A DNA stretch of 23,397 nucleotides from a virus (IMGVR_UViG_2645728091_000017:1-23397); one strand, 5' to 3'; counted from the first letter of the stretch, positions 1 to 23,043 are shown. Program-made: numbers and translations. Notes: generated from the letters alone by a model not told the origin.

Positions 1-717
1 ATGCTGATTGTATCTGTTCTCAAATGCGGTAAAGAATTTACCCCCAAACACGCACAATGGCTGCATAGCCAATTTAAAGGCATACCTTCAATTTGCTTAA
101 CTGATGCTGGAAGTATCCCTGGTGTTGAAACCGCACCGTTAATGCATAACCTTCCAGGTTGGTGGTCTAAGATTGAGCTTTTTAATCCAAACCATCCGGT
201 AATAGGTGATAAGGATCTGCTTTATTTTGACGTTGATGTTGTCATAACTGGTGATATCAAAATCTTTGATGCGGCGAAAGAGTTCACTATGCTGCGTGAG
301 TTTAACCACCCTTCCAGGGTTAACTCATCCATTATGTTCATTCCTGCGTCTATCAAACAATATGTTTGGGATGCGTTCTGGACTGACCCCGAAAAAAATA
401 TGCATGAATGCCAAACAGAAGATAAATGGGGTGATCAGGGATTTCTGGGCAGCGTCATGAAACCTGTATTGTGGCAAGATATAATTCCCGGCTCTGTTGT
501 TAGTTACAAATGCCATATAGCCACACGCAAAATGATAGGTTACAACCCTGACTTGGCATCAGATTATGCTACTGGCAAAGTTCCTGATGATGTTTCAGTT
601 GTATGTTTTCACGGTAGTCCTCGCCCATGGCGAACAGGGTTCAGTTGGGTTCCTTCCTTTTCTGTACGCGATACCCTGTATGGTAAATTCAAAAATTTTA
701 AACTCAGTTTGAAGTAA
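1..717 (+). CDS. Hypothetical protein, AT-rich moron; possible DxD-motif glycosyltransferase-like enzyme (speculative). May be 5'-truncated by the window edge
   Basis: 238-codon ORF on the strand opposite the late operon, visibly lower GC than the structural genes, followed by a strong intrinsic terminator. Contains LLYFDVDVVITGD (D-x-D-like). No family recognised with confidence. Confidence 0.35.
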   Translation: MLIVSVLKCGKEFTPKHAQWLHSQFKGIPSICLTDAGSIPGVETAPLMHNLPGWWSKIELFNPNHPVIGDKDLLYFDVDVVITGDIKIFDAAKEFTMLREFNHPSRVNSSIMFIPASIKQYVWDAFWTDPEKNMHECQTEDKWGDQGFLGSVMKPVLWQDIIPGSVVSYKCHIATRKMIGYNPDLASDYATGKVPDDVSVVCFHGSPRPWRTGFSWVPSFSVRDTLYGKFKNFKLSLK

Positions 718-758
718 TTTTTTTCAGTTGTTCTATAAGAAAAAATTTCTATCCATCC

Positions 759-789
759 CGCGCCACATCTGATGTCGCGGTTTTTTTTT
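759..789 (+). terminator. Rho-independent terminator downstream of ORF 1..717
   Basis: Imperfect GC-rich hairpin CCGCG(CC)ACATC-T-GATGTCGCGG at 759..780 followed by a T9 run at 781..789. Confidence 0.6.
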
Positions 790-1193
790 ACAGAATACCC
801 CCCTTACTAACGATCCACAAACACCGCCTAAAATTTAATTTTTCTTTTATTTTCTGTGAGTTGTAATTTTACGCCGATCCCTCACAGATCCTTTTTACTG
901 AAAAAAAATGAAATTTCTTTCAATCATTTCAGTTTCTGTTCTCCGCAAAGCCGCCAGTAATGGTGCGGTCTGGCGCTCTGGTTTGTAGAAAAATAAAACT
1001 GAAAAAATTTCCAGATCCAGAAACCGCAGGCGGGTGCGGTGTAGTGCCGTTTTTGTCTGCGAAAGATTTATTTTGTCTGCATGTGGCTACCTCAGAGCGT
1101 CGCTGTGAATTTGATCTTATTGCGGTGTCGCAGTGGTTTCCCTAGTGTTGTCCCGCCTGCTGAGAGCGTTCTGTGCGGTCTGGTGGTGGGTAC

Positions 1194-1215
1194 AAAAAAA
1201 CCCGCACAATGCGGG
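1194..1215 (-). terminator. Rho-independent terminator for the minus-strand operon end
   Basis: On the minus strand, hairpin CCCGC-ATTGT-GCGGG followed by a T7 run (plus strand shows AAAAAAA then CCCGCACAATGCGGG), about 40 nt past the stop at 1258. Confidence 0.55.
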
Positions 1216-1257
1216 TTAAGGTGTGTTCAATTCATATCAACCGATATAAGAACGTAG

Positions 1258-1590
1258 TTACTGACAGGCTTTTTGTCCAATGTAGTATGCAATTGAGCGG
1301 TCAACTATAGGGGCCATATTTGGATCTGGTGCCGAGTTATTCATCTGCTCGATGGTCTCACCGTCTCCAAGATATTTAACTGTCCCGGCAGTACAGTCGT
1401 ACAGCCGCTTTGAATATGATGTTCCAGAAGGCCCCTTTCTTTCGGTTGTTATAGTAGCCATGCTGCCGTCGCGAGTCTTATCTAAAATCGTGTAACTAGC
1501 CTTCGTATCTGTTGGCACATAAACAACCTCAGCCGCAAACACATTGAATGAAACTGCTGCTCCTACAGCTAATATAATGAAATTTTTCAT
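1258..1590 (-). CDS. Small secreted or periplasmic protein of unknown function (moron at the distal end of the tail operon)
   Basis: Internal Met gives MKNFIILAVGAAVSFNVFAA-EVV, a typical Sec signal peptide, preceded by an AGGA/AGGG Shine-Dalgarno-like stretch. Mature part about 90 aa with two Cys. AT-richer than neighbouring genes. The ORF track's longer N-terminus (to 1650) lacks signal-peptide logic. Confidence 0.45.
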   Translation of the reverse strand: MKNFIILAVGAAVSFNVFAAEVVYVPTDTKASYTILDKTRDGSMATITTERKGPSGTSYSKRLYDCTAGTVKYLGDGETIEQMNNSAPDPNMAPIVDRSIAYYIGQKACQ

Positions 1591-1680
1591 ATCCCTATTC
1601 CTATCATTTGAGTATGCAATAATCCTATCAAGGAACTGAGAAAACGACAAACCTCGCGTTTTGTGGGCTGTCTGGAATGG

Positions 1681-3384
1681 TCAGGCAATGATGTTCTGGT
1701 ACTTGCTCCGGGTCTGTCCGGCCTTTGTCGCCGTCTGGGTAAATGCTCCGGCATTGGTTGGCGTACCAACACTGGGGTGCGAATGGCTTGCGCACTGCTG
1801 CGCCAGTTCTGCCAGTAAATCAATGGTGTCCAACATCATGGTCAGCGTGTTTATACTCTCACTGCCGATATGGACGGTTGGCCCCATAATCTGCTGACCG
1901 CCCGATGCCACCGATTTGCGTAATGCAGCAATCTTTTCAGTCAGGGTTCCCCCCACATCAACATCTACGGCTCCCGCCACATTAGTGGACTGTTTCCCGA
2001 TTATCTCAGTTTCATCATTCCCTTCAATACTGGCCAGCCTGTTACCTTTCACCGCCTGGCTATAGTCACCAGCACTTACCTGCTGGATGGCTCCGGCCAG
2101 CAGTGTGGCGGTTCCCAGTACCGTGGTTTTATCCGTGGCTTTCACCGTGGTTTCACGGCTGACCAGTTCGCGCTGTTCCGTATCGGCTTTTACGGTTCGC
2201 GCCATCGATGTTTCACTGATGGTCTGATCGGTCTGCCTTACCCAGTCACCCGCCTGAGTCACCCTCTGAGATACTTCTTCCCGCTGCTGCTGTAATTGCT
2301 CACCGGGTTTAACGTCCGGCAGGCTGGTACCATCCGGCAGCGTCTGCCTGATAAAGGGTTTATCCGGTCTGCCCCCCGTGAATGCAACCTCAACCAGCGT
2401 CCCTTCTGGCGGAAACTGAAACATACCCGAATCATTCCCGGCCATCGGTACCGGCAACGGCACCGCTGAATAAACAGGCGTCTGATTGTCCGGGTTTCCG
2501 TCTGCGTCAAGCAGCTGCACGTCCACGGCGTAACGTGGCCGGAAGGGATCGGCAAAGTTACCGCTTTTTACCGGCTCTGAATGCGCCACGACTCTGGTCA
2601 TCTTTGGCAAATGAAGCCCGGATGCCAGTTCCGGGTAATGGCTTTCAATCTGCCGTTGCGCCGGTGTTTTCTGCAAAGGTTTACCCGTTGCGCGGTTTCT
2701 CGGCGTCCATGTGATCGCCATCGTGTCATTCGTCAGGTGAACTTTAGTCACGCGTTCACCGTTCATCTCCACCCCTGGCCGCATAGTCTGGATCACTGGT
2801 AATGTCACAGAGTTACCGCCAGCAGCCCCCTGGCTGAACTCTGACGGGATTTCTACAGGACGACCGGCAAACAATGACTTTTCTGCGCCGCCGACGTAAA
2901 GCGAACCATCAGGCAACTGGTACCAGATGTAATCCTGGATACTGAACGCCCTGCCCAGATTGTTCAGCAACTGATAACCAGTACCGTTATGGGTAAAATG
3001 TGGGATGGGGGTATCGCTGTACTGTGCATCAGGCACACTGACTGTGATCCCGCTGTTTTCTTCCAGCCAGCCCGCAATTTCACGCAAAGTCGGGTGTTGA
3101 AACGAACATGGCCACATCCTCTCAAACACACCTGCCAGCTCACGAATGAACAGACGCTGAAAACCGTTTTCAGCGGGCTGCGATCGCTCCACATACCCCG
3201 TAAACCAGCGCAAAAGCAGATCGGTATACCCCACATCCAGCCGCACCAGTTTTCCGGTGTAATCGGTTGTTGTCTCTGCGGTGATGAAGCCCCGGCCGCA
3301 GCTGTTCAGCTCCAGTACCAGGCTGGCATCCACCAGGTGAACTTCATCCGTTGAAAGATAAAGGCGTTTTACTGGTTTCATCAT
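1681..3384 (-). CDS. Late-operon protein, 567 aa, function unassigned (position suggests a tail or baseplate component, possibly gpD-like hub)
   Basis: Long ORF with high GC; its start overlaps the stop of the upstream gene at 3384. No diagnostic motif recognised; assignment is positional only. Confidence 0.5.
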   Translation of the reverse strand: MMKPVKRLYLSTDEVHLVDASLVLELNSCGRGFITAETTTDYTGKLVRLDVGYTDLLLRWFTGYVERSQPAENGFQRLFIRELAGVFERMWPCSFQHPTLREIAGWLEENSGITVSVPDAQYSDTPIPHFTHNGTGYQLLNNLGRAFSIQDYIWYQLPDGSLYVGGAEKSLFAGRPVEIPSEFSQGAAGGNSVTLPVIQTMRPGVEMNGERVTKVHLTNDTMAITWTPRNRATGKPLQKTPAQRQIESHYPELASGLHLPKMTRVVAHSEPVKSGNFADPFRPRYAVDVQLLDADGNPDNQTPVYSAVPLPVPMAGNDSGMFQFPPEGTLVEVAFTGGRPDKPFIRQTLPDGTSLPDVKPGEQLQQQREEVSQRVTQAGDWVRQTDQTISETSMARTVKADTEQRELVSRETTVKATDKTTVLGTATLLAGAIQQVSAGDYSQAVKGNRLASIEGNDETEIIGKQSTNVAGAVDVDVGGTLTEKIAALRKSVASGGQQIMGPTVHIGSESINTLTMMLDTIDLLAELAQQCASHSHPSVGTPTNAGAFTQTATKAGQTRSKYQNIIA

Positions 3385-3929
3385 TAACCCAAAGCATCAT
3401 TGACGGGCTTCAGCACTTTGCGTTCAAACCACGTCAGTTTTTCTTCATCTTCTCCGGCAGACTGGCCACCGTTCTGTCCCGCACTACCGGCAGTCTGTTT
3501 TTTTGCGGTCGTCTTACCTGTTGCCCTGGCCTCTCGCTTTTCCTGCACGCTGATATGTTCCGCCAGTGTGAATGTCACCAGCCAGGACATTTTCCCGTCC
3601 TGCTGGGGTGCATCCAGCATTCCGCTGAACGTTGCTTCACGAAAGTTAACAGCACGGGCAACTTCATGCGCCACACGGTACTTCTGACGATTACCACTGG
3701 CATCGGTCGCACTGGCCAGCTCAAAAATACGCTTCAGAATTTCAGGCTGTTTAAAAGGTATTTCACCGCTGATCCGCAGTTCCTTTCCCTTTGCTCCCTG
3801 CTCTGATTTTGTTGTGGCGCTGGTCTGGCCGGACTGATCTTTATCCTGAAATTGCTGTGAAACAGTCACCCGCATGTTTTTCAGCTGGATGGCCTCGCCA
3901 TTAAGCGCCAGTGTCGGGATCGAAGTCAT
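3384..3929 (-). CDS. Late-operon protein, 181 aa, function unassigned (possible tail protein)
   Basis: ORF translationally coupled to both neighbours; charged and Gln/Ala-rich C-terminus. Family not recognised. Confidence 0.45.
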   Translation of the reverse strand: MTSIPTLALNGEAIQLKNMRVTVSQQFQDKDQSGQTSATTKSEQGAKGKELRISGEIPFKQPEILKRIFELASATDASGNRQKYRVAHEVARAVNFREATFSGMLDAPQQDGKMSWLVTFTLAEHISVQEKREARATGKTTAKKQTAGSAGQNGGQSAGEDEEKLTWFERKVLKPVNDALG

Positions 3930-4662
3930 GAATCATTCCCTTTATTCCATCAAGATTATCGCCAACCAGCATCATGGCAGCGGTGTAAACGGCAGACTGC
4001 TGCGGAATGTCCTTCATCAGTTCCAGTAACGTGGTGCCGGTATCTCCGCTGGCAGTAAAAACCCACGCTCTGGCACTCTTTCCCTGTAAATCATTCAGGC
4101 CGCTGGCCACATCTCTGATAAGCTGGTCACGCAGCTGCGTGAACTCGCCCAGCTGTTTTTTCAGCCCTTCGATATCAAACCCGGCACACGCCGCCTTTTG
4201 TGCCTGGCTGATTGCCATAGCAGATAAAGCTGCCCTGCTGGTTGGTACAGACAGTGGAATGGACGCAGGTAACGCTGCGGCGGCTTTCGCCGGGATCTGC
4301 ATCTTTTCAATAGCCAGCGCTGCGAAGGATTGCGCCAGCCGTTTTACCTGCGTGAATGCCGGGGCGGGGAAAATCCCGACCAGGTTATTCAAGCTGGCCA
4401 TAAAGTTTTCCTGCGTCTGTCCGGTGACCATCATAATCACCACGTCCGCATTCCCCCCCGTTCCGGCCAAGCGTTCAGCAAGATAGCGAACGGCATTAAC
4501 CGGGCTGAGATATGCCCCGTTCGCAGTCTGCTGTCCCAGCCCATAAATCCACGGATGCGCAGGGACGATCGAACAGTTCAGCGCAGCAACAGAATCCGTG
4601 AAGGCCAGACGTGCTTCACGCCACATTTCCAGGCACCTCCGGCCACACAATTTCCGGTGCAT
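3901..4662 (-). CDS. Late-operon protein, about 240-253 aa, function unassigned
   Basis: ORF immediately downstream of the tail fiber assembly gene in the same operon. True start may be the internal Met of MWREARLAF. Family not recognised. Confidence 0.45.
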   Translation of the reverse strand: MHRKLCGRRCLEMWREARLAFTDSVAALNCSIVPAHPWIYGLGQQTANGAYLSPVNAVRYLAERLAGTGGNADVVIMMVTGQTQENFMASLNNLVGIFPAPAFTQVKRLAQSFAALAIEKMQIPAKAAAALPASIPLSVPTSRAALSAMAISQAQKAACAGFDIEGLKKQLGEFTQLRDQLIRDVASGLNDLQGKSARAWVFTASGDTGTTLLELMKDIPQQSAVYTAAMMLVGDNLDGIKGMIHDFDPDTGA

Positions 4663-5207
4663 CTTCCGGTTGAATACGGTTCAGTAAAACGCGGTATTTT
4701 TTCCATGCGGTAAGCAGCAGTGCTTCTTCTTCGGTCGCCATGTCTAAATCAACGGCATCCTGCAATGTGGCAATGGCGTCACTGGCCTGTTTAAGCAGTC
4801 TTTTCTTTTCGGCATCTGCCTCGCTGACTAATGCAATTCGCATGGCCTCCGCATCATCCACCCACCCACGCCTTACCATTCCATTTTTGCCAGGCATTAG
4901 CCGGTGCTAACGTGGTTGTCCCTTCCGGGTACCCCCCTGGCTCGATGATCACCACTTCATTACCGTTTTCTGTATCAAACACCACCTCACCACGATGATC
5001 CTCACGGGAAATCCATCTTTGCTTCTCTGAATCAAAAATTGCCACAAACCCCGCTTTGATTACCGGTGGTTTTATTGTGGTGCAGTTGACTGGCAGTCCG
5101 GTATGCGCAGGTATAAAAGCATCACCCGAACCAATAAATTCATTCGTGTCTGAACGCAGGTTATAAACAGTAACTGTTTGATCGGTTTCACTCATTTTAA
5201 AAGTCAT
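4616..5207 (-). pseudogene. Tail fiber assembly protein (Tfa/gpG-like) split by a frameshift
   Basis: N-terminal part (4854..5207, MTFKMSETD...QKWNGKAWV) and C-terminal part (4616..4897, ...DDAEAMRIALVSEADAEKKRLL...) lie in different frames and together resemble one Tfa. The junction is in the repeat TGGGTGGGTGG (minus strand, about 4857..4868). Confidence 0.6.
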
Positions 5208-6781
5208 TATGCGAGTCTCACTATGTAGTTAAATGCAATATTCTTAACTGTCGTTTCTGTGTTACCCGACGCGGCGACGCTAATCGTGTGACTATGTGCG
5301 CCAATTGCTACGGTATGAGAGTGAGCGCCAATACCTACGGTGTGATTGTGTGCGCCAATAGCTACGGTGTGCGCATGGTTTCCCGCCGAACTTGTAGTAG
5401 TCGCGCCCTTATCCTGTCTGGGTACACCATAATCCGAACCGCCAGACTGCACACTAACGGCAAACCCGACAGTGTGCGTATGCGCCCCCGTTGTATTTGT
5501 CGTTTTCGTGCCATAGTCAAATGTGCTCGCCGTTTTAGTACCGTAATCAAATGAGGATGTTGATTTCGTCCCCAAATCGGTACTGGATGCACTGGCTGTG
5601 TGTGAGTGGGATTTATTACCATCATCTTCATAGGACAAAACTTCGCGGCCGTCTGGTTTCCCTTTGATTGTCCAGCGGCGCATGTCAGGAATAACACCCG
5701 ACGGATACGCGATGGCCAGTAAAGGATATGCAACCTTATCAAAAGATTGTCCCTGCATAATTGCCCACCCTACAGGCGGGATATTCGTTGGCCACGGAAG
5801 CGGCACACCAACCGGCAGAACATCACTACGACTTAAAACCGCCAGTTCACCCAGTTCCAGACTTTTTCTGGCTTTCGCTTTGTCGTTAACATCAGCAAGG
5901 TTTGCATCCTTACGCAAAAAATCGCTGCTGGCCTGCTGTTCTCCCAGGCTACCTTTTGGCCGTAGATCCGTGATGTTGCCATCCACATCAATGCTGGCCA
6001 CCGCAAACACATAATGCTGAACCCCGTTCTGAACGTAATCAGCAAGATTTGCAGCCACCGTGATTTTGCTCTGCACATTCCAGACACTGGTCAGCGTCCC
6101 TGTCCAGCACACATCCAGCCAGACTTTTACCGGCTTTGTCGTCACCGTAATATTCTGATTCGCAGCCAGTGACGCACGAAGTCCAGCCACATAACCCGTG
6201 CCTTTCGTGACAAAAAACTGATTGCCGGTTTTGGCTACCAGATACCCGTTACCAAAAAACGCAGCCGCACCATAGATATCCATATTTTCAAGGCGCTGGC
6301 GCTCATCCATTCCGGCCATACGCGCGGTGAAATCAATCTGCCAGGTCTCAGCGGGCGTATTAATCCCGGTTTCCGTTTGTGCGCCGTTGTACTCCATCAG
6401 AAACGAGCGGGTCAGCACGTTCCCCTGTTGCCCTTCTTTTGTTTTCAGTTTCTGCTGTGATGGTGCATGGACAATCATTGCCAGCGTACCGCTGGCCTTA
6501 TTGAGCAGACCGATCCAGTTAAAACTGAAATCACCCACATCTGCGCCCAGCACTACGGAATAAACCACCCCGTTTTCATTCACCACACCTGTGCGGGTAA
6601 CAGACTGCCGGTGAACAATCTGTGCTGTCGGGGGCAACGCTTCATTGCGATCAACAGGTGTATCCGGGTTTAAATCCGGCACACTGGCAAAAACAAATTC
6701 GTCCAGTAGTACCGGTTCACCCGTTGCGCCCTGCTGTGCTTTCCAGTTTTCAAACGCCAGTGTGATGGCTGTCTGTGACAT
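5207..6781 (-). CDS. Tail fiber protein (P2 gpH-like N-terminus; C-terminal tip with His-x-His repeats)
   Basis: 524 aa. Position between the baseplate genes and Tfa, with a 1-nt stop/start overlap (TAATG) with Tfa. C-terminus carries DYGTKT(A/T)S(T/S)F repeats and GAHxHTV(A/G)I repeats. Confidence 0.8.
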
Positions 6782-6791
6782 AAAAACCTCC

Positions 6792-7385
6792 TTACAAACT
6801 CGCGCTGAATATTGCGCTGCGGGCTTCCGTCCCTGCTAACGTCGCCGGGTAAACCATATATTCCCCCTGATCCCATCCAGCCCTGATAACCAGGCTTTCA
6901 GACGTGATCACCTCAAACTGATAACGGCGGCATGTTCGCCCGTACTGGCGGATTATCTGGATCAGCAGCTGCGTGTTGTCTGCAATCTGGCTGTCTGTAA
7001 CCCGAACAAGAATTACATCCCAGTCGATATCCGGTTGCCGTTCTAACAGCTCCACATAACCAATCCCCAGCCGTTCAAAGATATTGATAAACCCCTCTAC
7101 TGAACCGGCATCCCGCGCATTCACAAAGGCAAAAGCCACGCGTTTGCGGAACAGAGGCAACGGTTCACCATCAAAACGGGTTATATCCCGGTCATAAGCC
7201 AGCAGGTTCAGTAATGCCGGTGTACACGTCAGCGGATCAAACTGATTCGTTGGCCAGGTAACCCAGCCGTAAACCTCAGCCCAGAACCGCCGCGCCGTTT
7301 TCAGCAATTTCCCCGGTTCGCCTTTATTCATCCAGGAAGGCAAGACCATCCCGGCCAGCTTTTTCATGAACTCATTCATTCTCAA
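6792..7385 (-). CDS. Baseplate protein, P2 gpI-like tail protein I
   Basis: About 195 aa, located between the baseplate J-like gene and the tail fiber gene as in P2 (J-I-H order). Confidence 0.55.
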
Positions 7386-8558
7386 TATTCACCGTCAGTG
7401 ATTTCAGACGCGGCACGCTAAGTTCACTGGTAATGTCTCCCAGCGAAAATGTCAGTGATTCTGTCTGCGCAAAGGTTTTATGAATTTCCCGCCCCAGTTG
7501 CGAAAAGGAAAACCGTGAATATGGCCACGTCTTTCTGACGTCATAATCAGCATTTTCACGAAAGGCACAGCGGATCATGTTCTCAATGCCGCCCTTCAGC
7601 GTTTTCACCTCTTCGTCACTGAAGTTGTTTAGATTTTTGACATAAACAGTGACGGCCAGATCGTGAAGCGTTTCCGGCATGGGATAACACTGCATATCAT
7701 CACCGTGCCCGTGATGTCCCAGCGTGTTGATATAGTCATTCACCGCATCCACGAACGGCGCTGATGCCACCCCACTGTCCAGTAATAAAAAGGCGTTGGC
7801 TGTTCCTGGCCCCCTCGGTGCTTCATGCTCAAAGAAAATCCGATCTATACTCAGCCCGGCAACACTGGCGATCATTGAGCGATAGACCGCATCAGTGTGG
7901 TAATTCCCCACAAGATTAAACTGATTGCGGCAACGCTCGCGCAGTTCATCATCACTTTCCTCGTCAGCCCCCGGTACGGTCAGCCAGTTTTCCTCACTGA
8001 CCACATGGCTGATACCACTGACCGCCACCGGCAGAATGCGGTAATATCCAGGCGCAAGGTTATACGCGCCCCCGGTGCCGGTGGCTTTCACCGGCAGTAA
8101 TGCGCTGGCCGCACCGGAAGCGATCACCACATCCTCAGTGGTGGCCACCTCATAAACTCGCCCGTTAATGCGTTCTGTCTGGATAACCGTCCCGGCTTTC
8201 ACCGTCACCACAGCTTTTGCATCTTCTTTGAAGAAGCGGATCACCCCATGTGCAGCGCTCGCCGGTTTTGCCGTGACGTTCACCGCCCAGGCCAGCAGAC
8301 GCAACATGCTCCCGCTGGCTGTGGCCACAAACATATTGGCCAGCACGGTTAACACCAGAACGTCTTTAAGCCACATCACCGGGGCAGTCACAATGGCGGT
8401 GATTAATCGCCAGAACGGTGACATTCGGGATGTATTGGTGATAATTCCCTCATCTGCTGCAATTGCATTGAAGCGTTCCCGCACTTCGGCTTCCGTTACC
8501 GGCATACCGCTGTCTTTCACCACTTCTTCAAAATCAACCTGCGGTTTTTCCGTCATAA
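7372..8558 (-). CDS. Baseplate J-like protein (P2 gpJ / Mu gp47 family)
   Basis: About 395 aa with family-like composition, upstream of the gpI-like gene. Start is probably MTEKPQVDFEE, directly abutting the upstream stop; the ORF track extends it to 8610. Confidence 0.7.
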
Positions 8559-8882
8559 ATCCACCTGCGCAGAGATCCCGCCAAAATCGTATGTACTCGC
8601 GGTTACCCACAGCCGCTTCTGACTTTCTTCACTGATTTCCACCGTACCCGGCACAATGCGTTCATCATCTTCAATCAGTAATTCCATGCGGGTAAAAATA
8701 TCCGCTCTCATTGTCGGGCTACGTTCGGCGATTAATTCCGTCGCTAACCCGCTTTCAATAATGGAATGAATAATGTCCTGCCCGATACTTTTTCGGTTAT
8801 TACATAATTCAGGTTCATTACCGGTATTCAGAACAAAGTCACCGCCCTGAATCAGCAAGTCGATATAGAGAACATTACTCAT
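8553..8882 (-). CDS. Small baseplate protein (gpW/gp25-like or DUF2590-like)
   Basis: About 110 aa between the tape measure and baseplate J genes. Start MSNVLY overlaps the tape measure stop (ATGA) with GGAG 9 nt upstream. Confidence 0.5.
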   Translation of the reverse strand: MSNVLYIDLLIQGGDFVLNTGNEPELCNNRKSIGQDIIHSIIESGLATELIAERSPTMRADIFTRMELLIEDDERIVPGTVEISEESQKRLWVTASTYDFGGISAQVDL

Positions 8883-18761: not shown

Positions 18762-20478
18762 ATGGCTAAATACTCAGAAGAACTAAAAGGCGTTGTCCGC
18801 GCACTTTATTTGCGCCGCTATACGCCAAAAGAAATTGCATCAGAACTAAATCTGCCGAATGCGCGGATCGTTTACTACTGGGCTGAGAAATACAGCTGGG
18901 CTGATTTACTCAGTTTTGAAAGCACAGAGGAGGCAATTGAACGTCGCTACCAGCTGCTGGCCAGCCGCGATAATAAAACCGATCTAGACCTCAAAGAAAT
19001 GGACATGCTGATTGCCCACGCCACAAAGCTACGTGCTCAAAGCAATAAGCATAAAGAAAAGATGGCCAGCGGCCAGAGTAACGGGCAGGCAGCTGCGCGC
19101 GACAGCAACAGCGATGAACCGCGCCCCAAACGCAAAAACAGGAAAAACGATATTTCTTCTCTGACTCAGGCGGATTTTGACACCTGGGCGGAAGAACATC
19201 TTTTTGAATACCAGAAACACCTGCGCAGGAACATCGGCCAGCAGGTCAGGAACATCCTTAAAAGCCGCCAGATCGGTGCCACCTGGTACTTTGCATTTGA
19301 AGCCTTTGAAAACGCGGTCATGACAGGCGATCCGCAAATCTTCCTGTCTGCCTCCAAAGTCCAGGCGGAATACTTCCGGTCTTACATCGTCAACATTGCA
19401 GAACAGTATTTTGGCATCACGCTGACCGGCAACCCGATCCGCCTCAGCAACGGCGCTGAACTGCGTTTTCTCTCAACCAACAAAAACACGGCACAGTCCT
19501 ACAGTGGCCACCTGTACTGTGACGAATATTTCTGGGTGCCTAACTTCGCCAGGCTTAACGAAGTGGCCAGCGCAATGGCCACCCATGACAAATGGCGTAC
19601 CACCTACTTTTCAACGCCCTCAGCCAAAACGCACCAGGCTTACCCGTTCTGGACGGGTGAAGAATGGAAACAGGGCAGCAAAAAACGCGCGGCCGCCCAG
19701 TTCCCGTCCTTTGATGAAATGCGTAACGGCGGGCGGCTTCAACCTGGCCAACATCGAGAAGCTGCGCAACCGCTACAACACCGCCACCTTCAACATGCTC
19801 TATATGTGCGTGTTCGTAGACAGCAAGGATTCCGTATTCAGCTTTTCAGACCTGGAAGCCTGCGGCGTGGAGGTGGATACCTGGCAGGATCACAATCCGG
19901 ACGCTGCGCGGCCATTTGGTGACAGGCCAGTATGGGGAGGATTTGACCCGGCACGCAGCGGCGATTTGTCGTGTTTTGTGATTATTGCCCCGCCGATGTA
20001 CGCCGCAGAGAAATTCCGCGTTCTGAAGGTCATTAACTGGAAGGGCATGAACTTCCGCTATCAGGCCAGGCAGATCGAACTCCTGTTTAAAAAATACAAC
20101 TTCACCTATCTGGGAGTGGACGTTACCGGTATTGGCCAGGGTGTTTTTGACAACATCCAGCATTTTGCCATGCGCGTGGCCGTCGCCATTCGTTACGACA
20201 TGAACACAAAAAATCAGCTGGTACTGAAAGCGGCGGACGTGGTGGAAAGTCAGCGTATTGAATGGGACAAGAACCTGAAAGAGATCCCGGCCAGCTTTAT
20301 GGCTGTACGCCGCACCACCACGCAAAGCGGTAACGCCATGACATTTGTCGCTGACCGCAGCCAGGACACTGGCCACGCGGAGGCGTTCTGGGCAATTACC
20401 CACGCCCTGCATAACGAACCACTCAACTACGAAAACAAACCGAAATCCCGCTGGGGTGTAAGGAAAGAGGCTGCATGA
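18762..20478 (+). pseudogene. P: Terminase large (ATPase) subunit, P2 gpP-like, interrupted by a +1 frameshift
   Basis: N-terminal ORF (18762..19922) is terminase-like up to ...SFDEMRNG, then reads a nonsense tail. The downstream ORF (19504..20478) becomes terminase-like from GFNLANIEKLRNRY. Junction is at GGCGGGCGGC (19728..19737); removing one G restores a single reading frame of about 570 aa. Confidence 0.8.
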
Positions 20479-22005: not shown

Positions 22006-23043
22006 ATGTTTGGTTCAAAGCTTGTAACTAAACTGTGGGAAACCACAGCAGAAAAAGGTATTGGTGCTTTATGTAAGCCCTGGCAAATGCGTAGAGAGGG
22101 AGTTGCCAGTTTAGAAATGGAAAGAAAAAAAATGTTAGTTCTGGCTCAAACAGAGATGGATGTCGAGAACATAAAAAGCGGAAAAGCCATCGTTTCGTTA
22201 AATGATCTAAACAATCCCAAATTGATTTCATTAGAAAATAAACAAGAGTATGATAATTCAGGTTCAATGGAGCCTTACATAGATTTCGATAACTTAAAAA
22301 ACGCAGTAAGTACTCAACTCATTGCAAATGAAGTTCAAAAAGAAATAAACATTGCCAAGTCATTATTTGTTGCTGAAGAAATACTTTCTGTTGATCAGTC
22401 TGAGCCTACTGCTGAAAATATCGAAAATGATTGGTTGCTAAGGTGGAGAGATAGTGCTGCGACAAGTAGTTCTGAGAAGCTACAGGATTTATGGGGAAGA
22501 ATACTTGCAGGTGAACTAAAAAGCCCGGGGTCGTATTCATTAAGAACTGTTGATTTCATCAAAAACCTGACACAAAAAGAAGCAAATAAAATACAAAAAC
22601 TATTCTCTTTCCTCTTTCTTGATAGAATTATCAAGGGGGAAAAAGGTAGTTCTAAATTCGACAATGAATACTTAGATAATGAACTGAACTATAATTTTTT
22701 ATCTGAGATGCAGTCACTCGGAATCATTGCTGGGGTTGAGTCAATGGGATTAGCCTCAACTTTCAAGTCTCTTAGTGAAGAAACCTTTTTTTATTATCAT
22801 ATGTATAATGATAAAGTAATGCAGATTAAACATGACGATCCAGAGAAAGAACTTAAACTAAGGGTTTTAATTCTAACGCCACTTGGCCATGAGTTAAAAA
22901 GTTTATGCCCTGCTACAATTGATAGCATTTATCTCAATCATGTTATTGATGCGATTAAATCATTAGATTTTAAAGTTATCATTGGTGATTGCATACGTAA
23001 AGAAAATGGGGAAATATACTCTAAAAATGAAGTAGAAGTTTAA
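22006..23043 (+). CDS. AT-rich cargo protein of unknown function, 345 aa; candidate single-gene anti-phage defence or exclusion protein
   Basis: Long ORF in markedly AT-rich DNA between the ogr-like gene and a hairpin terminator. AGGAG 8 nt before the ATG. Contains NDWLLRWRDSAATSSSEKLQDLWGRILAGELKSPGSYSLRTVDFIKNLTQKEANKIQKLF, which I recall as DUF2806-like (unverified). Not a virion, lysis or replication gene. Confidence 0.7.
   Translation: MFGSKLVTKLWETTAEKGIGALCKPWQMRREGVASLEMERKKMLVLAQTEMDVENIKSGKAIVSLNDLNNPKLISLENKQEYDNSGSMEPYIDFDNLKNAVSTQLIANEVQKEINIAKSLFVAEEILSVDQSEPTAENIENDWLLRWRDSAATSSSEKLQDLWGRILAGELKSPGSYSLRTVDFIKNLTQKEANKIQKLFSFLFLDRIIKGEKGSSKFDNEYLDNELNYNFLSEMQSLGIIAGVESMGLASTFKSLSEETFFYYHMYNDKVMQIKHDDPEKELKLRVLILTPLGHELKSLCPATIDSIYLNHVIDAIKSLDFKVIIGDCIRKENGEIYSKNEVEV

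Follow-up and report, generated by a model that had tools for sequence, protein, structure and literature searches.

The glycosyltransferase gene at the left end of the window

The window, by which we mean the whole 23,397-nt stretch of DNA analysed here, opens with a complete gene which very probably encodes a glycosyltransferase. The gene and the signals that belong to it are:

1..717, plus strand, coding sequence of the glycosyltransferase (GT8-like GT-A; PHROG 1962 / P1 PmgQ family); complete, 238 aa plus stop
169..171, plus strand, codon of Lys57 in the PGWWSK motif; invariant in 74 homologues
229..237, plus strand, D77-V-D79, the DxD motif; predicted from conservation and GT8 alignment to bind metal and nucleotide-sugar
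430..441, plus strand, G144-D145-Q146-G147 motif; aligned with the GDQG of glycogenin, D145 invariant
604..630, plus strand, C202-F-H204-G-S-P-R-P-W210; counterpart of the GT8 H(F/Y)xGxxKPW motif
661..714, plus strand, basic C-terminal extension SVRDTLYGKFKNFKLSLK, net charge +4; specific to the close subfamily (at least about 49% identity)
758..789, plus strand, intrinsic terminator of the gene; interrupted GC hairpin (758-780) followed by T9 (781-789)

Base 1 of the window is the A of the ATG. All tail, lysis and capsid ORFs between 1258 and 17735 are on the minus strand, and the gene and the late operon therefore converge. The gene has 41.7% GC (GC3 37%), compared with 52.6% for the minus-strand late genes of 1258..17735; GC3 is 59% in the 567-aa tail gene which adjoins it. 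The first-pass annotation of this DNA, which described an AT-rich ORF on the strand opposite the late operon, was correct on both counts. It also allowed that the ORF might be truncated by the window, and proposed extending the sequence upstream. Locus L006, which matches window 1-1300 without a difference and is 99.84% identical across 10.7 kb, provides that extension: in-frame stop codons are found four (TGA) and six (TAA) codons before the ATG. The PHROG 1962 profile match also begins at profile position 1. Truncation is thus refuted.

The gene is intact and selectively maintained. Values of dN/dS are 0.02 against the 95%-identical copy in Combat13F7 and 0.09-0.15 against copies which are 54-75% identical at the protein level, so that the gene is under purifying selection. 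The identical protein is found in many assemblies. Together with the PHROG match and the number of homologues given below, the dN/dS values place the ORF well outside what would arise by chance.

The terminator hairpin (CCGCG-CC-ACAT-CTG-ATGT-CGCGG, 758-780) is preceded by an A-run at 740-746 which can pair with the U-run. Segment 715-800 folds with -16.8 kcal/mol (z = -4.06 against dinucleotide shuffles; 1 of 200 shuffles is as stable), bearing out the earlier description of a strong terminator belonging to the gene itself. A consensus terminator scanner makes no call on this hairpin, apparently because the stem is interrupted; on the other strand, it finds the terminator of the late operon at 1217-1199. 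No sigma-70 consensus promoter was found upstream of the ATG in a scan of L006. A search for Ogr-type late promoters (TGT-N12-ACA) gave four matches against 6.5 expected, none of them intergenic. Rfam models gave nothing near gathering scores in 700-1700.

Prophage boundary and attachment site

In every locus examined which carries the exact protein, the distance from the gene to the start of mntR is 374 nt, and the same tail genes come after it. Junctions were mapped by comparing three sequences: the left junction in L006, the right junction in a related element (L001), and K-12 locus L103, where the site is empty. The att core is 11 bp long (TATAATATAGC, positions 9732-9742 of L006) and ends 258 nt upstream of the ATG. 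To the left of the core the sequence equals that of K-12. To the right there is phage-specific sequence with ATGTCGCAAAAATGTCGC repeats, which recur beside the integrase gene at the other junction; such repeats are typical of integrase arm sites. The K-12 site is empty and has no such glycosyltransferase gene. In the phage record ESSI2_ev129 (Peduoviridae, Quadragintavirus), cI is followed by int, a cargo gene annotated as 'serine acetyltransferase', a conserved block matching window 809-1032, and the record end.

The prophage which contains the gene is P2-like (Peduoviridae, ESSI-2/Quadragintavirus-type) and has integrated between mntR and mntS. From the junction comparison and the gene order of ESSI2_ev129 it follows that the gene is phage cargo and not host DNA. 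The first-pass annotation had considered that it might be host chromosome beyond the prophage boundary, and the low GC content, the opposite orientation and the position at the window edge would all fit this. However, the att core lies upstream of the gene, phage-specific DNA with arm-type repeats separates the core from the ATG, the K-12 site is empty, and ESSI2_ev129 has its own cargo gene in the same slot. In addition, when 5426 complete E. coli genomes were searched with window 1-1300, only one gave a match over 80% or more of this segment. The probability that this is a host gene is close to nil.

All 11 nt of the att core TATAATATAGC belong to the host rybA/mntS promoter: six form the -10 hexamer, and there are 5 nt more. 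The TATAAT is 7 nt upstream of the annotated 5' end of rybA/mntS in K-12. Since the core contains TATAAT, the left junction retains the upstream half of the host promoter together with a -10 box, facing the cargo gene on the same strand. An inverted repeat over the mntS start site (ATATAGC-CTGT-GCTATAT) is split by integration.

On the other side of the gene, the two convergent terminators enclose a non-coding block (809..1257) which is conserved, with 94-96% identity, in other E. coli prophages of this kind. Two phage records have an end inside it: Cronobacter phage ESSI-2 begins at the position equivalent to window 1030, and ESSI2_ev015 stops at window 1037. These record ends suggest that the genome terminus (cos) is located within the block. 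The near-repeats GGTGCGGTCTGGCGCT (962-977) and GGTGCGGTGTAGTGCC (1033-1048) flank the candidate cos.

Enzyme identity and conserved motifs

The protein matches PHROG 1962, annotated 'glycosyltransferase', with E = 6e-81 (residues 1-223 on profile positions 1-224 of 230). The PHROG 1962 / PmgQ family comprises 4,253 clusters at 50% identity (E up to 1e-10). A search of 5.8 billion proteins gave 283 homologues, and a single-protein search of genome contigs gave three loci. Among the 120 homologues listed, the only precomputed Pfam domain is one fused MptE-like domain. Scans of the protein found no family in Pfam at E up to 10 (PF01501 included), none in PADLOC at E up to 10, and none in NCBIfam.

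A family profile was built from 74 homologues and used both for conservation and for a search of the PDB. Against the PDB it matches the Skp1 alpha-galactosyltransferase AgtA (5e-7), glycogenins (about 4e-5) and Streptococcus pneumoniae GlyE (5e-3). In hhalign comparisons with the GT8 enzymes of the E. coli LPS outer core, WaaJ aligns with 80.7% probability (E = 1.3e-5) and WaaO with 35.9% (E = 3.8e-4). The fold is GT-A (Rossmann-like, nucleotide-sugar binding), and the nearest structures are those of GT8. Matches to strigolactone esterases (E about 0.05), obtained with single-sequence phmmer against the PDB, are spurious and were superseded by the profile search. The product is a soluble GT-A glycosyltransferase related to CAZy family GT8. 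We label it a GT8-like GT-A enzyme of a distinct family, not a demonstrated member of GT8, because no curated model recognises it and because Cys202 occupies the column of the canonical histidine.

The peptide that had been singled out as D-x-D-like, DKDLLYFDVDVVITGD, is residues 70-85. Among the 74 homologues D77 never varies, and D79 is conserved in at least 90%; D77-x-D79 aligns with the D-A-D of glycogenin, AgtA, WaaJ and WaaO. The glycosyltransferase and D-x-D reading is thus well supported by profile, fold and motif alignment. Lys57 aligns with a conserved lysine of glycogenin which contacts the UDP pyrophosphate. The family form of the C-terminal motif is VCFHGxPRPW, in which G205-x-P-R-P-W aligns with GxxKPW. 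The column of the canonical metal-binding histidine of GT8 holds Cys202 (at least 90% conserved), and a conserved histidine, His204 (at least 90%), is found two residues later.

A membrane-anchoring amphipathic helix was considered for the C-terminal tail and dropped: the tail is not significantly amphipathic (muH 0.32, p = 0.28 against shuffles), so membrane binding is unsupported by this test. The description as a conserved polybasic tail is retained.

Family branches and their genomic contexts

In tblastn searches of phage genomes, PmgQ of P1 and HdmD of P7 are 39.5-39.7% identical to the protein over 93% of the query. Closer matches are found in Chlobot (lambdoid, 75%), Chuche (P2-like, 52.5%) and C. 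rodentium phage phiNP (43.7%), all in genes annotated as 'glycosyltransferase'. We use branch A for members at least about 49% identical to the window protein. These have an extra C-terminal tail of about 18-20 aa which is rich in Lys and Arg (net charge +3 to +7); PmgQ-like and more distant members stop before it.

Branch A genes are solitary. They are found beside att and convergent on tail-fibre/tfa genes in the window, in Chlobot, in L026/27 and in a K. aerogenes Mu-like prophage (L113), and after the tail genes at the prophage end in Chuche, in L028-31 and in E. albertii (L110-112). The placement near the tail-fibre/att end of a prophage which the first-pass annotation had pointed to therefore recurs in several unrelated phage lineages. 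In three species, branch A genes stand alone on the chromosome, and the surrounding 7 kb or so contain no phage genes: in Shimwellia blattae beside copA, in Vitreoscilla massiliensis, and in V. stercoraria between rnr and rpoD-dnaG.

Contexts of the branch lacking the tail (branch B) were counted at 30 viral-contig or phage loci. Here the genes sit in late/structural operons. Neighbours include an MptE-like 'sialyltransferase' (phrog_4603) at 16 of the 30 loci, an FkbM methyltransferase at 12 and an HK97-type major capsid gene at 10, as well as head-closure Hc1 (13), Neck1 (11), head-tail adaptor Ad1 (10) and tail terminator (7) genes; PIG-L, GT1-like and other GT-A genes are also found nearby. 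In distant members (23-44% identity), for example in L013, L017 and Tetraselmis viridis virus S20, the gene has capsid genes on one side and head-tail connector genes on the other. Fusions of family members to MptE-like and sugar O-methyltransferase domains exist. P1 (pmgO, pmgP, ppp, pmgQ) and phiNP share the branch B pattern, and a member which is 48% identical to the window protein and lacks the tail (L032) is found in a cassette of this kind, with a P2-type portal gene upstream. The window gene departs from this pattern: it is solitary, and MptE-like or methyltransferase partners, which accompany only distant members, are absent from its surroundings.

A PmgQ-type cassette between the major capsid and connector genes is also seen in L021, L022, L034-L050 and P1 (L019), so that both uncultured and isolated phages are represented, and pmgO and pmgP of P1 belong to the MptE-like group of neighbours. 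With its MptE/Maf-like, FkbM methyltransferase, PIG-L and other glycosyltransferase partners, the PmgQ-type gene seems to belong to a virion-glycan cassette which is as yet undescribed. In the genome of Salmonella enterica strain s1 (CP191473.1), the gene is present twice, at separate loci (L117/L118), and the diverged products are 74% and 71% identical to the window protein; one is beside tail-fibre/tfa DNA and the other is beside FlhDC-like, LuxR-type regulator and GH19 lysozyme-like genes.

The cargo slot

The content of the att-proximal slot, which extends from the att site to the genome end, varies between prophages, and the slot is thus a cargo hotspot. In sister prophages integrated at mntR/mntS (L002, L104-L108, L109), other genes are found in it. 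Among them are a hexapeptide 'serine' acetyltransferase on its own; an OLD/Gabija-like ATPase (PADLOC HEC-04, 8e-33) combined with an acetyltransferase; a Shosta system (ShosA 2e-52, ShosT 5e-10); and PDC-S64 and other hypothetical genes plus the glycosyltransferase. The recurrent acetyltransferase has no match in PADLOC and may be another surface-modifying enzyme. A link between the glycosyltransferase and a particular type of tail-fibre tip was rejected. The tips next to glycosyltransferase genes are homologous in lambdoid, P2-like and other phages (46-80%), but those of sister prophages without the gene are equally similar (58-88%).

A 79%-identical homologue (L024/L025) follows homologues of portal and ogr, in the position equivalent to the gpQ-gpA hotspot which Rousset et al. 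2022 (PMC9122126) reported for P2-like phages. The window prophage has a second AT-rich accessory gene at that published defence hotspot, between portal/ogr and the replication gene gpA:

22006..23043, plus strand, DUF2806 gene; 34% GC, Pfam 1.2e-25

The DUF2806 protein has a weak Abi_alpha match in precomputed annotation; PADLOC gives no match.

Comparison with known systems

The closest named relatives, PmgQ and HdmD, also come from temperate enterobacterial phages. They belong to PHROG 1962 and are homologous to the window protein over residues 1-221 (39.5% identity, E about 2e-39). PmgQ differs in lacking the basic C-terminal tail and in its setting: pmgQ is in an operon with pmgO and pmgP (MptE-like) and ppp, whereas the gene in the window stands by itself next to att. 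The P1 operon is headed by the late promoter LPpmgL together with sigma-70 promoters with C1 operators. The name pmgQ carries the placeholder label 'putative morphogenetic function', and the gene is non-essential in P1 according to CRISPRi and an earlier study (PMC10695390). Beyond the P1 essentiality tables, a literature search on PmgQ/PmgO/PmgP function, phage glycosyltransferases and prophage integration at mntS gave nothing relevant.

The protein is 10-16% identical to GT8 enzymes (glycogenin, AgtA, N. meningitidis LgtC, GlyE, K. pneumoniae WbbM and WaaJ/WaaO). It differs from these in having no PF01501 match and in having Cys202 in place of the canonical histidine, with the conserved histidine at +2. 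WaaJ and WaaO (338 and 339 aa) are also longer than the window protein (238 aa).

Serotype-converting phage cassettes are found next to int-attP; examples are gtrABC of P22 and of the Shigella Sf phages, and the O-acetyltransferases Oac and NeuO. Genes located beside attP and at the tail-fibre end are classically receptor- or serotype-modifying. The arrangement in the window resembles these cassettes, which are accessory surface-modifying genes beside attP at the tail-fibre or tail-spike end; the hexapeptide acetyltransferase in the same slot of sister phages adds to the likeness. As with gtrABC, the gene is beside att, and the slot in ESSI2_ev129 directly follows int. In contrast to gtrABC, there is no GtrA flippase, GtrB (GT2) or membrane GtrC, none being detected by Pfam among the neighbouring genes. 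Being one soluble GT-A protein, the window enzyme would need to work on the cytoplasmic face.

The slot also resembles the hotspots of P2-like phages in being variable, in being flanked by conserved phage DNA, and in having Shosta and OLD-like ATPase occupants. It is, however, not the hotspot described in PMC9122126 (Rousset et al. 2022). The word 'glycosyltransferase' is absent from the main text of both hotspot papers, PMC9122126 included. The virion-glycosylation genes of mycobacteriophages and the capsid-glycan glycosyltransferases of chloroviruses (A64R of PBCV-1) differ from the window gene, which is outside the structural operon and has no partner enzymes.

Proposed role

The gene is a further member of a catalogued phage glycosyltransferase family located in a prophage cargo hotspot; it is an ordinary accessory gene. 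Two steps of its action can be proposed fairly safely from the biochemistry of GT8. D77 and D79, together with H204 or C202, would hold a divalent metal and bind a UDP-sugar, and the enzyme would transfer one hexose with retention of configuration. The acceptor is a more tentative matter. For branch A, the genomic context points to a host-cell component, because these genes survive free of phage in three species, are dispensable for virions with near-identical tails, and have no partner enzymes nearby. An envelope glycan intermediate on the cytoplasmic face, such as LPS outer core or a lipid-linked repeat unit, would be the likeliest acceptor. It is the most economical choice because the closest enzymes from the same host include WaaJ and WaaO and because genes at the attP/tail-fibre end classically modify receptors. 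Production would take place in the lysogen, where transcription reading through from the host mntS promoter might drive the gene, although promoter capture is a hypothesis only. The added sugar could alter a surface receptor, leading to lysogenic conversion or to the exclusion of competing phages. Lysogenic conversion by modification of surface polysaccharide, the role suggested in the first-pass annotation, would be favoured by the cargo slot and by the homologues which stand alone on chromosomes. Taken as a whole, the chain from a GT8-like cargo enzyme to a modified host envelope glycan in the lysogen is a tentative proposal which falls a little short of probable.

Several other roles can be considered. 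The enzyme might instead add sugar to a capsid, tail or tail-fibre protein of the phage during lytic growth, and the virion glycan might then alter stability, host range or immune recognition. Glycosyltransferases of some mycobacteriophages have been reported to glycosylate virion proteins; we know of no virion glycan in P2-like or P1 phages. In distant members, the capsid and connector neighbours, together with MptE/Maf-like, FkbM, PIG-L and other glycosyltransferase genes, suggest virion glycosylation for at least part of the family. For branch B it is well motivated, judging by gene neighbourhood: the 30 loci without the tail have capsid, connector, MptE-like and FkbM neighbours, family members are fused to MptE-like or sugar O-methyltransferase domains, and in P1 a late promoter heads the operon in which pmgO, pmgP and ppp precede pmgQ. 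The close subfamily also adjoins tail-fibre and tfa genes in several lineages. The window gene, however, is alone and convergent, and is separated from the late operon by about 470 nt which include its own terminator and that of the operon. Sister prophages with nearly the same tail genes carry defence genes or acetyltransferases instead, and close homologues persist as solitary chromosomal genes without a phage. Virion glycosylation is thus unlikely to be the role of this particular gene. It is likewise improbable that the acceptor is a protein, nucleic acid or small molecule of the host or of an invading phage, with the enzyme acting as a defence or counter-defence effector. The location in a hotspot is what suggests such a role, but the protein has no match in PADLOC and no sensor or partner domain, and the partners found across the family, both by fusion and by neighbourhood, are glycan-building enzymes. 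DNA glycosylation was set aside, as genes of a hydroxymethyl-base pathway are absent and the family partners are glycan-building enzymes; P2-like phages are not known to carry a hydroxymethylated base able to accept a sugar.

The gene might also be a decaying, non-functional passenger in a defective prophage. Frameshifts in the large terminase gene and in the tail-fibre assembly gene are consistent with this, as is the lack of a clear promoter in the scans. Against this, the ORF is intact with all conserved motifs, dN/dS is 0.02-0.15, and the identical protein recurs across many assemblies; decay is therefore very unlikely. A broader scheme can be drawn for the family. PmgQ proteins might form the core of a widespread, unrecognised virion-glycosylation cassette, inserted between capsid and connector genes together with a Maf/MptE-like transferase and a sugar methyltransferase, in phages of Gram-negative bacteria including P1; the tailed subfamily would then be derived from it as a lone gene in att-proximal and defence hotspots, glycosylating host receptors and, in this prophage, driven by a captured mntS promoter. 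In all its parts together, this scheme is speculative and rather doubtful.

If the acceptor is indeed an envelope glycan, as we propose, the gene would provide a one-gene cytoplasmic route to lysogenic conversion or receptor masking, unlike gtrABC, and such a route would share hotspots with anti-phage defence systems. The gene is also a handle on a very large family of phage glycosyltransferases which includes pmgO-pmgQ of P1. The contexts of that family suggest that virion glycosylation may be common outside the actinobacteriophages; this family-level picture is a more interesting lead than the single gene.

Other features of the prophage

Two further genes of the window prophage are split:

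18762..20478, plus strand, large terminase gene, split by a frameshift; residues 1-333 in frame 3 (18762-19757) and 338-591 in frame 1 (19714-20475)
4616..4897 and 4854..5207, minus strand, tail-fibre assembly gene, present as two ORFs

Residues of the terminase are numbered by an intact 591-aa homologue, which was used as the reference. The split may mean that the prophage is defective, or it may be an indel error in the assembly. The tail-fibre assembly gene is a single intact gene of 195 aa in L006. Across the 10.7 kb shared by the window and L006 there is a single gap opening, at which the window has 4 extra nt.
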